Virus record (IMG/VR): IMGVR_UViG_3300029484_000045
Source: a virus
Lineage: Duplodnaviria; Heunggongvirae; Uroviricota; Caudoviricetes
DNA: 5,768 bases
Strand: one strand, 5' to 3'
Shown here: positions 1,061 through 4,525 of the stretch, one piece after another
How positions within the stretch are numbered: the first letter of the stretch is position 1
Layout of the letters: each line of letters opens with the position of its first letter
Translations under genes and position numbers: made by a program
Notes under the pieces: model-generated
The model's input: only the letters and a program-made list of their open reading frames with translations
Database searches by the model: none
Told to the model about the DNA's origin: nothing

Positions 1061-1114
1061 TTGTGGTGAATGCGCAGGCTGATGCGCGAAAGACATTGCA
1101 GCTATTGCGGAAAA
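1061..1114 (+). repeat. 54-bp direct repeat, copy 1 (PL transcript leader)
   Basis: Identical 54/54 to 1730-1783 (offset 669 bp); 5 of the 6 preceding bases also match. Contains hairpin GCGCA-GGCTGA-TGCGC at 1071-1088. Confidence 0.95.
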
Positions 1115-1166
1115 GAGCTGTTCGGCGGGGCCATTAAACGCCCGTATCTGGAGGTTAAAGAACAAA

Positions 1167-1729: not shown

Positions 1730-1783
1730 TTGTGGTGAATGCGCAGGCTGATGCGCGAAAGACATTGCAGCTATTGCGGAAAA
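1730..1783 (+). repeat. 54-bp direct repeat, copy 2
   Basis: Identical to 1061-1114. Followed at once by an N-run, so the true repeat length may be greater. Confidence 0.95.
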
Positions 1784-3972: not shown

Positions 3973-4325
3973 ATGTTTTCGAAATGGAAGGGTTTCTTCG
4001 CGGGAAATGTGTACCGCGAGATCTGAAAGTGAACGAAACAAATGCTGAGTACCTGGTACGTAAATTCGATGCGCTTGAAGCTAAATGTACGGCACTGGAA
4101 AACAAAATAATACCAGTGTCAGCTGAACTGCCACCAGCAAATGAAAGTGTTCTGTTATTTGATGCTAACGGAGAAGGCTGGCTAATTGGCTGGCGTTCTC
4201 TCTGGTACACCTGGGGACAAAAAGAAACCGGAGAATGGCAGTGGACATTTCAGGTCGGGGACCTTGAAAACGTCAATATCACTCACTGGGCAGTAATGCC
4301 GAAAGCACCGGAGAATAAGAAATGA
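3963..4325 (+). CDS. yfdS: YfdS-like prophage protein (120 aa)
   Basis: ATG at 3963 overlaps the yfdR stop by 10 nt (translational coupling). 120 aa, Trp-rich C-terminus. Position and length match YfdS. Confidence 0.85.
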   Translation: MRMNVFEMEGFLRGKCVPRDLKVNETNAEYLVRKFDALEAKCTALENKIIPVSAELPPANESVLLFDANGEGWLIGWRSLWYTWGQKETGEWQWTFQVGDLENVNITHWAVMPKAPENKK

Positions 4326-4525
4326 GCGTGATAAAAACTCATACAGGAATTGTTATCACCCGAGACGGTCCGCAGGTAAAAAAACTGCACCAGACAAAGC
4401 GGATGTGGGTCGTCGGAAAAAACGAGTTTTACCACAAAGAAACCGGACGCCGCCACTTTGCAGAAAATACGCGCCGCCGACTGCTGATCGACAGCATCAA
4501 GCCTATCGAGGTGAAGCATGTTTAA
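4322..4525 (+). CDS. Hypothetical small basic protein (67 aa)
   Basis: ATGA start/stop overlap with yfdS. SD GGAGA 7 nt upstream. The competing frame 4405-4767 looks like low-complexity R/K read-through. Confidence 0.6.
   Translation: MSVIKTHTGIVITRDGPQVKKLHQTKRMWVVGKNEFYHKETGRRHFAENTRRRLLIDSIKPIEVKHV

Follow-up and report, generated by a model that had tools for sequence, protein, structure and literature searches.

The put RNA of phage HK022 measures about 70 nt and is built from two stems (PMC9378689). The related phage LLS, whose early-left operon is of the yfdP/Q/R type, has no N homologue, and a put site has been merely speculated upon for it (PMC12315714, 2025). The STnc100 family has been related to the EPEC sRNA PasD (bioRxiv 10.64898/2026.05.13.724894), and 11 expressed copies are known from EDL933, where some copies carry ribosome footprints and one copy, annotated at 191 nt, was confirmed by Northern blot (PMC5331693). 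A copy of the same family sits 75 nt 3' of stx2B (PMC12370729), and the Hfq-binding sRNA EcOnc27 partly overlaps a predicted STnc100 copy downstream of that gene (PMC12711010).

The stretch of DNA analysed here (the window, 5,768 nt) comes from a lambdoid prophage of the SfV/CPS-53 type and covers its immunity and early-left region; a prophage in E. coli CT02 and phage SfV are close relatives. A short G+C hairpin in the early-left leader had been picked out in a first-pass annotation and compared there with the boxB hairpins of lambdoid nutL sites, with a put-like, RNA-based antitermination raised as a further possibility. The reading reached here is an ordinary one, namely that the hairpin feature is a piece of an element which represents a divergent variant within a known family of prophage sRNAs. 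The explanation that we favour, with somewhat better than even confidence, is that the hairpin represents stem P2 of a cut-off fragment of a prophage structured small-RNA element, and that a complete STnc100-family core located further downstream most likely acts as an sRNA.

The early-left leader and its truncated element

A cro-like gene on the - strand ends at position 185, and a CI/LexA-type repressor with HTH and peptidase S24 domains is encoded at 280-933, after which comes a terminator-like hairpin. The PL-type promoter lies at 1020-1049 on the + strand (TTGACA at 1020, a spacing of 18 nt, and TACATT ending at 1049) and is a good one, matching the sigma-70 consensus at 10 of 12 positions; from the placement of its -35 and -10 hexamers, transcription is predicted to start at about 1056-1058. 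Operator repeats of 18 nt (996-1013 and 1031-1048) flank or overlap PL, a third copy is found on the PR side (217-235), and the PL and PR regions together form a 40-nt inverted duplication (208-247 versus 1018-1057). The first conserved early-left gene is yfdP (2056-2418, + strand), 3' of which come yfdQ, yfdR and other small genes of the early-left operon, and in SfV this operon has the excision genes at its end. A long, near-perfect hairpin in the yfdP leader (1915-2010, + strand; -58 kcal/mol, z -4.85) lies directly 5' of the yfdP ribosome-binding site and may provide an extra processing step there. From the CPS-53 prophage of E. coli K-12 the whole leader element is gone, and K-12 data are therefore of no help here.

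The hairpin itself occupies 1072-1087 on the + strand, where GCGCA (1072-1076) pairs with UGCGC (1083-1087) around a GGCUGA loop. The stem-loop previously drawn at 1071-1088 is thus real, although that range adds a flanking U.G pair to the true bounds, and its computed position, approximately +15 to +31 from the predicted start, agrees with the earlier placement some 15-30 nt into the PL transcript. Folded alone, the hairpin reaches -8.6 kcal/mol (z -1.47), a value equalled by 15 of 200 shuffles, and the folding of the fragment 1057-1150 was no better than chance when compared with shuffled sequences (z -0.53). A repeat of the hairpin had been reported at 1740-1757; the same 16 nt do recur, at 1741-1756, but the genuineness of this second copy is doubtful, as discussed below. 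Both hairpin copies lie inside a direct repeat of 60 nt (1055-1114 and 1724-1783, 59/60 identical), which begins at the edge of the immunity module, that is, where the 40-nt PL/PR inverted repeat ends at 1057.

In phage mEp460 and in many viral contigs, an element identical to the window repeat in its 5' sequence is present at full length, laid out as GUUGUGGUG-AAU-[GCGCA GGCUGA UGCGC]-~90 nt-CACCACAAC and situated directly 5' of a terminator and a yfdP leader hairpin like those of the window. Relatives without an insert have a single element of about 130 nt in the early-left leader, closed by the helix GUUGUGGUG...CACCACAAC. The PL-proximal copy in the window (copy 1, 1055-1146, + strand) contains the 5' strand of the closing helix P1 (1060-1068), the AAU trinucleotide (1069-1071), stem P2 (1072-1087) and then about 60 nt; it tracks the mEp460-type element for approximately 90 nt, up to about 1146, where it enters an insert of two ORFs. 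Copy 1 consequently corresponds to the first third, at the 5' end, of a structured RNA element of the mEp460 type; it lacks the 3' half and is cut off by this two-ORF moron, and the hairpin is a single stem from a larger fold, the rest of which is missing in copy 1.

The moron spans 1147-1723 and consists of convergent ORFs on the two strands: one assigned to phrog_3195 (1167 to about 1456, + strand), which is interrupted by an N-run at 1278-1295, and one of 81 aa assigned to phrog_3311 (1374-1619, - strand). Relatives lacking the insert match the window in two pieces spanning about 340 bp. In the viral contig L131, the same insert lies between 89-nt direct repeats (98% identical) of the 5' part of the element, and the second repeat copy there is a complete mEp460-type element. 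It is the full-length relatives, the insert-less relatives and the duplication in L131 that identify copy 1 as a truncated remnant bordering the moron. Two such inserts occur in tandem in L135 and L147, with the same junction sequence.

That one junction sequence bounds single as well as tandem morons in these three contigs, and that the repeat starts exactly where the immunity module ends, would also suit a reading in which the 5' core (GTTGTGGTGAATGCG plus the hairpin) is mainly a site of moron-swapping recombination without a function as an RNA in its own right. The same pattern would, however, arise from recombination at any conserved sequence, and the full-length elements possess covarying helices, which point to selection on RNA structure and speak against a junction role only. 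We regard this reading as rather unlikely, though with a real chance of being correct; it is compatible with the truncated-element explanation given above, and the two are not mutually exclusive.

The downstream copy and the STnc100 family

Copy 2 of the repeat (1724-1783, + strand) stops at a second N-run (1784-1795), and it forms the beginning of a complete STnc100-family core at 1727-1853 on the + strand. The helices of this core are P1 (1729-1737 with 1843-1851), P2 (1741-1756), P4 (1802-1809 with 1819-1826) and P5 (1828-1832 with 1838-1842), all on the + strand, and an intrinsic terminator comes next (1872-1918, + strand), with an 11-bp stem and a U5 tract (-23.8 kcal/mol, z -3.3). In the Rfam search, 1699-1920 matched STnc100 (RF02076) with 38.1 bits and an E value of 9e-6, with 12 masked bases inside the match. 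The alignment spans the full model, terminator included, and makes the hairpin the first inner stem. The gathering threshold of RF02076 (47 bits) was reached neither by copy 2 nor by the unmasked SfV sequence (39.5 bits), and L002 and L003 gave no RF02076 match at gathering level.

A second covariance model, R1, was built independently of Rfam from 120 viral contigs with the conserved 3' motif ACCGGGAGGCACCCGGCACC, which were reduced to 47 diverse representatives; the alignment used for the model consisted of 21 of these, all of them members other than copy 2. With this model the window core 1727-1853 scored 43.9 bits (E 5e-10), the elements of CT02, ST64B and SfV scored 55-57 bits, and those of RCS47 and P1 54-58 bits. 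Judged by its match to both models, the core of copy 2 is a member of the STnc100 family, and the leader of SfV/CPS-53-type prophages contains an STnc100-family RNA gene.

The position of the allele that owns the hairpin is less certain. Full mEp460-type elements (L007 and L131) scored 14.4 bits with R1 (E about 0.05), which is the best non-canonical R1 match in 61 kb and yet a marginal one, and copy 1 scored 8.7 bits (E 1.6); the Rfam STnc100 model gave no match to a pure mEp460-type element at E<=1. The Rfam model thus misses the mEp460-type allele and scores the SfV type under its threshold. The mEp460-type allele and STnc100 share the locus position, the P1 strands, the AAU and P2, and since the model scores are weak, family membership of the mEp460-type element leans mainly on position, P1 strands and layout. 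With a marginal score from R1 and none from Rfam, the element to which the hairpin belongs appears to be of a divergent mEp460 type that is related to the STnc100/PasD family, and at best a distant variant of it. The P2 and P5 loops of this mEp460-type element carry the complementary sequences GCUGA and UCAGC.

In the family as collected here, the helices show covariation. At the second extension position of P1, a G-C pair occurs in 43 members and an A-U pair in 35, and at the third a U-A pair in 28 and a C-G pair in 29. Stem P2 is kept while its sequence varies among element types (CCCCC...GGGG, GCGG...CGC and CUUUC...GAAAG), as would be expected of a structural stem. The strand right after P2 pairs with the loop of P4 to form a pseudoknot, the pairs of which are diverse across members (AUCAGC/GCUGGU, AAGGUUG/CAACCUU and GACUGACAAA/UUUGUCAGUC); the contiguous complementarity between pseudoknot strand and loop averaged 5.96 nt within the same RNA compared to 4.18 nt between different RNAs. 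RNAalifold on a MAFFT alignment returned P1, P2 and P5 only, and P4 and the pseudoknot were assessed by running a permutation script on a structure written by hand. Using this structure, pseudoknot included, 82.5% of the alignment cells were paired, compared to 38-48% when the 3' partners were slid, and none of 500 shuffles reached the observed value in the permutation test.

Most collected members were preceded by an A-rich block resembling a -10 element, located at -16 to -10, and a terminator-like site within 130 nt accompanied 68 of the 93 members, compared to 50 of 279 random windows. Members were also found in the ban operons of P1 and RCS47, and elsewhere in several copies per genome. 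The collected members have the appearance of independent sRNA genes, ending in terminators of their own. The core, with its covarying pseudoknot and invariant junction bases, nevertheless suggests a fold more elaborate than that of typical Hfq sRNAs, and than the label 'sRNA' implies for the STnc100 family.

A separate question is whether copy 2, as assembled in the window, is genuine. Apart from the first N-run, positions 1-1743 are 100% identical to E. coli CT02. From 1744 on, sequence of copy 1 occupies 40 nt of the window (1744-1783) and is followed by 12 N, where CT02 has 52 nt of SfV type, so that the length is kept exactly, and past the N-run at 1784-1795 the window resumes as SfV-type sequence. 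No contiguous copy-2 junction was found in 5,426 complete E. coli genomes, in which the top matches were all in two pieces, and gapped searches of IMG/VR and the JGI metagenomes did not find the chimera either. An exact search with the left junction of copy 2 gave nothing among the GTDB species genomes and 18 contigs in IMG/VR, 0/18 of which had the chimera of the window.

A possible explanation is that the second hairpin (1741-1756) arose during assembly or consensus building, and that the true genome is of the SfV/CT02 type with a single such hairpin. This would account for the identity to CT02 up to 1743 followed by a swap of exactly 52 nt, and for the absence of the chimera from the collections searched; in addition, the two element types have no homology at the right-hand junction, and the other N-run (18 N at 1278-1295) stands against 4 nt in relatives, a difference that would put the moron ORF out of frame. 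On the other hand, the natural duplication around the same moron in L131 makes a recombinant conceivable, and the masked bases are unreadable. We hold this origin to be a serious possibility that falls just short of even. As the chimera occurs nowhere in the collections searched and its right-hand junction lacks homology, the second hairpin copy may be an artefact or a rare recombinant.

Antitermination signals and small proteins

The first-pass annotation had found no recognisable N-like gene, and this holds: ten ORFs (nine from the window, together with the + strand moron ORF taken from the unmasked CT02 copy) were scanned against PHROGs and Pfam, and none matched an N or Nun family. The same proteins were sought in a related genome, as had been proposed, and complete SfV is annotated with a Q-like protein and no N. 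The absence of N is confirmed for this locus, and had already been noted for related phages (PMC12315714). The accompanying statement that an arginine-rich motif is absent from the larger ORFs downstream of PL was nearly right, given that the 40-aa ORF at 1070-1192 starts MRRLMRER and the 67-aa ORF at 4322-4525 contains RR..RRR; neither matches an N-like family.

With its 5-bp G+C stem, which lies at +15 to +31 in the PL transcript and resembles that of P22 boxB, the hairpin could in principle be bound by an unrecognised N-like or host protein. The comparison with boxB did not withstand closer inspection, however. The hexaloop GGCUGA is not a GNRA-like pentaloop, the hairpin is an inner stem of a larger element, and a boxA, the lack of which had been remarked on before, has indeed no + strand match near the hairpin (1050-1170); across the whole window, YGCTCTTWA with one mismatch gave 10 matches against 4.8 +/- 2.4 expected, which was not regarded as exceeding chance. 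Moreover, no protein with an arginine-rich N-terminus has family support, the sequence at the P2 position changes with the element type while the stem is retained, and the elements of mEp460 and ST64B lie some 290-360 nt away from PL. Binding of this kind is, in our judgement, extremely unlikely.

The suggestion of a put-like RNA fared no better. It would have the leader RNA, as fragment, core or both, bind RNA polymerase in cis and render it resistant to terminators in place of N. Several features are consistent with this, including the absence of an N-like gene, the strong terminator ahead of all early-left genes, the complex pseudoknotted fold of the core with its invariant junction bases, the location of the SfV element in the PL leader, and the speculation on put for such phages by the authors of the LLS study (PMC12315714). 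Nevertheless, HK022 putL, which was located via the PL promoter and the numbering in the cryo-EM study PMC9378689, resembles the element in neither sequence nor structure: no similarity was detected by blastn, Rfam or covariance model, and the best R1 score on the HK022 genome was 7.4 bits (E 3.7). Only one match to the element exists in the whole SfV genome; it lies in the PL leader, and the PR operon has none. The family is also found where antitermination is already supplied or irrelevant (stx2B, the ban operons of P1 and RCS47, and genomes with several copies), and most members are then followed by a terminator of their own, which a put RNA should suppress; that the family RNAs do terminate is indicated by these terminators and by the Northern blot in EDL933 (PMC5331693). 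Finally, it is the PL-proximal copy 1 that lacks half of the structure. Taken on these grounds, a put-like function is decidedly unlikely.

The same segment had also been read as a 24-codon, GTG-initiated basic peptide. The ORF (1063-1137) exists and, as stated then, has no Shine-Dalgarno sequence, but a coding role is not borne out, since its length is not conserved. In the frame xTG-GTG-AAT, a start-like codon is present in 85/93 family members, because this codon belongs to helix P1, while the distance to the first stop varies between 5 and more than 75 codons.

A small protein could be encoded either by this ORF or by the 40-aa ATG ORF at 1070-1192 (MRRLMRERHCSYCGK...), both of which are present. 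The latter contains a CSYCGK motif reminiscent of ClpX-type zinc fingers, the first PL gene of one relative is a genuine 67-aa ClpX-type zinc-finger gene, and ribosome footprints have been observed on some EDL933 STnc100 copies (PMC5331693). Against this, a Shine-Dalgarno sequence is missing, the start codon falls within helix P1, and the end of the ORF in this frame varies among family members as described. The best Pfam match is a generic zinc-ribbon with an E value of 0.035, with no match to the ClpX finger, and BLASTP against the real zinc-finger protein gave an E value of 0.014 over 13 residues. The sequence conservation is explained by RNA covariation, which also argues against a peptide. 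We judge the GTG ORF to be non-coding, and a small protein from either frame to be very unlikely. The more specific idea that ORF 1070-1192 is the remnant of a ClpX-type zinc finger was rejected, as the CSxCG motif alone is shared and neither the Pfam nor the BLASTP result is significant.

Proposed role and comparison with known systems

In the explanation favoured here, that of a truncated STnc100-related element, recombination at the element would have brought in the two-ORF moron and left the 5' piece beside PL, and the complete core (1727-1853) and the terminator (1872-1918) would have stayed downstream of the moron. The copy 1 fragment would then probably have no regulatory role of its own, beyond marking the recombination junction, because its 3' pairing partners are missing. 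The downstream element most likely acts, by analogy with described family members, as a discrete Hfq-associated sRNA that is ended by its own terminator. As the element ends there, the terminator would also attenuate PL transcripts, and yfdP and the later genes would be expressed via the fraction of transcription reading through 1872-1918.

Since this phage lacks N and yet has a strong terminator ahead of all its early-left genes, the RNA might act in cis, although none of the results obtained here lends support to this. It is conceivable that the STnc100 core works as a cis-acting pseudoknotted RNA, either polymerase-binding or riboswitch-like, which through its single copy in the PL leader decides on passage of the leader terminator in N-less yfdP-type phages; we rate this as quite unlikely. 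If true, it would constitute a second class of RNA antiterminator or attenuator, unrelated to put. In N-less phages of this kind, every early-left gene is preceded by a structured RNA together with a strong terminator and a long hairpin. For annotation, the results mean that the hairpin should be named neither a nut nor a put site, and that the ORF overlapping it should not be listed as a peptide.

Compared to the nutL sites of lambda and P22, the window likewise has a short G+C hairpin some tens of nt downstream of the start of the PL transcript, but it differs in lacking boxA and N, in the hexaloop, and in that the hairpin is internal to a larger fold. The likeness to putL and putR of HK022 lies in a structured RNA with which the PL transcript begins and in the fact that both are lambdoid phages without N. 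In contrast to the two stems and approximately 70 nt of put, the STnc100-family core comprises about 125 nt, forms four or five helices as well as a pseudoknot, shows no sequence or model similarity to put, is present once per phage and not on both the left and right sides, and belongs to a family whose members stop at their own terminators.

The sequences at moron and module boundaries of lambdoid phages serve as a further comparison system. As at such boundaries, a direct repeat of conserved leader sequence surrounds a gene pair in the window, and relatives of the window carry tandem cassettes with the same junction; what sets this locus apart is that its boundary sequence belongs to a gene for a structured RNA.

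With STnc100, PasD and EcOnc27 the window core shares the P1-AAU-P2-P4-P5 layout and the invariant ACCGGGAGGCACCCGGCACC, as well as the location on a lambdoid prophage with an intrinsic terminator next to it. It departs from them in that copy 2 scores below the Rfam gathering threshold, copy 1 is just a fragment, and the mEp460-type allele that includes the hairpin differs in its P5 loop and middle part and hardly registers with the models. Furthermore, whereas STnc100 elsewhere lies downstream of stx or Q, the element in the window is situated in the PL leader of a phage without N.

The pseudoknot, a possible loop-loop contact and P1-type members of the RNA family

The core of the STnc100-family RNA contains a pseudoknot, formed between the strand immediately following P2 and the P4 loop (P4 is at 1802-1826 in the window). 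This pairing covaries family-wide in the viral contigs (L009-L127), and it is not marked in the Rfam consensus line for STnc100. In the intact mEp460-type element, a putative divergent STnc100-like allele (L007 2505-2642), a different loop contact is suggested by a 5-nt complementarity (GCUGA/UCAGC) between the GGCUGA loop of P2 and the loop of a second hairpin, the last one before the closing helix (AGAUCAGCA). These two loops could form a kissing interaction; the window holds no partner loop for the GGCUGA loop of this element.

Full STnc100-family members were also found in phage P1 (L005, AF234172; 2500-2627) and RCS47 (L006; 2500-2628), scoring 54-58 bits with R1, the covariance model built from 21 other members of the family. 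Each is embedded in a P1-type ban operon, where it is surrounded by tRNA genes and a dicF-like region; the P1 member is located between upl and tciA and the RCS47 member 5' of a serine protease gene.

The yfdP leader hairpin, moron cassettes and N-runs

Directly 5' of the yfdP ribosome-binding site, the window carries a hairpin (1915-2010; folding energy -58 kcal/mol, z -4.85) whose stem of approximately 24 bp is paired almost without flaw. The hairpin overlaps the U tract of the terminator. A hairpin is found at the equivalent position in ST64B, where both arms are made up of different bases from those in the window. The hairpin at 1915-2010 could serve as an RNase III processing site.

Moron cassettes, the inserts of the early-left leader, occur in tandem in L135 (6009-7220) and L147 (1180-1850). 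They share their junction sequences, with ...CCTTAGCGTTGTGGTGAATGCG at one boundary and ATCTGGAGGTTAAAGAACAAAATG at the opposite one, so that the leader looks like it holds a small array of cassettes. In the window, the first N-run (1278-1295) places 18 N where relatives have just 4 nt (agtt), a difference that would put the moron ORF out of frame. The second (1784-1795; 12 N) is length-preserving. Both runs have the appearance of gaps in the assembly or consensus, not of masked features.

Leaders of relatives and small early-left proteins

In ST64B (L004 ~2150-2500) and mEp460 (L007 ~2210-2500), PL is separated from the RNA element by a G+C-rich stretch of 290-360 nt, which is absent from the window. 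In ST64B this stretch contains no annotated genes and ends in a terminator-like hairpin, and in mEp460 it contains only two small 'hypothetical' ORFs on the minus strand. In E. coli K-12 CPS-53 (L148 3248-3604), the repressor, PL, the RNA element and the terminator have all been lost, and the sequence 5' of yfdP is repetitive, unrelated and adjoins yfdO. On the PR side, outside the window, homologues of IsrK and the C4 antisense RNA adjoin each other in the operon of relatives (SfV, L146 27603-27791; L007 1-163; L131 3393-3581), with scores above the Rfam gathering threshold.

Regarding small proteins, a 67-aa ORF of the window (4322-4525; phrog_1226) has an arginine-rich stretch, GRRHFAENTRRRLL, close to its C-terminus; no functional family is assigned to this ORF. 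In the related E. coli prophage L147, the first gene 3' of PL (1010-1213) encodes a 67-aa ClpX C4-type zinc-finger protein (Pfam E 1.3e-10), a position that in lambda is occupied by N.
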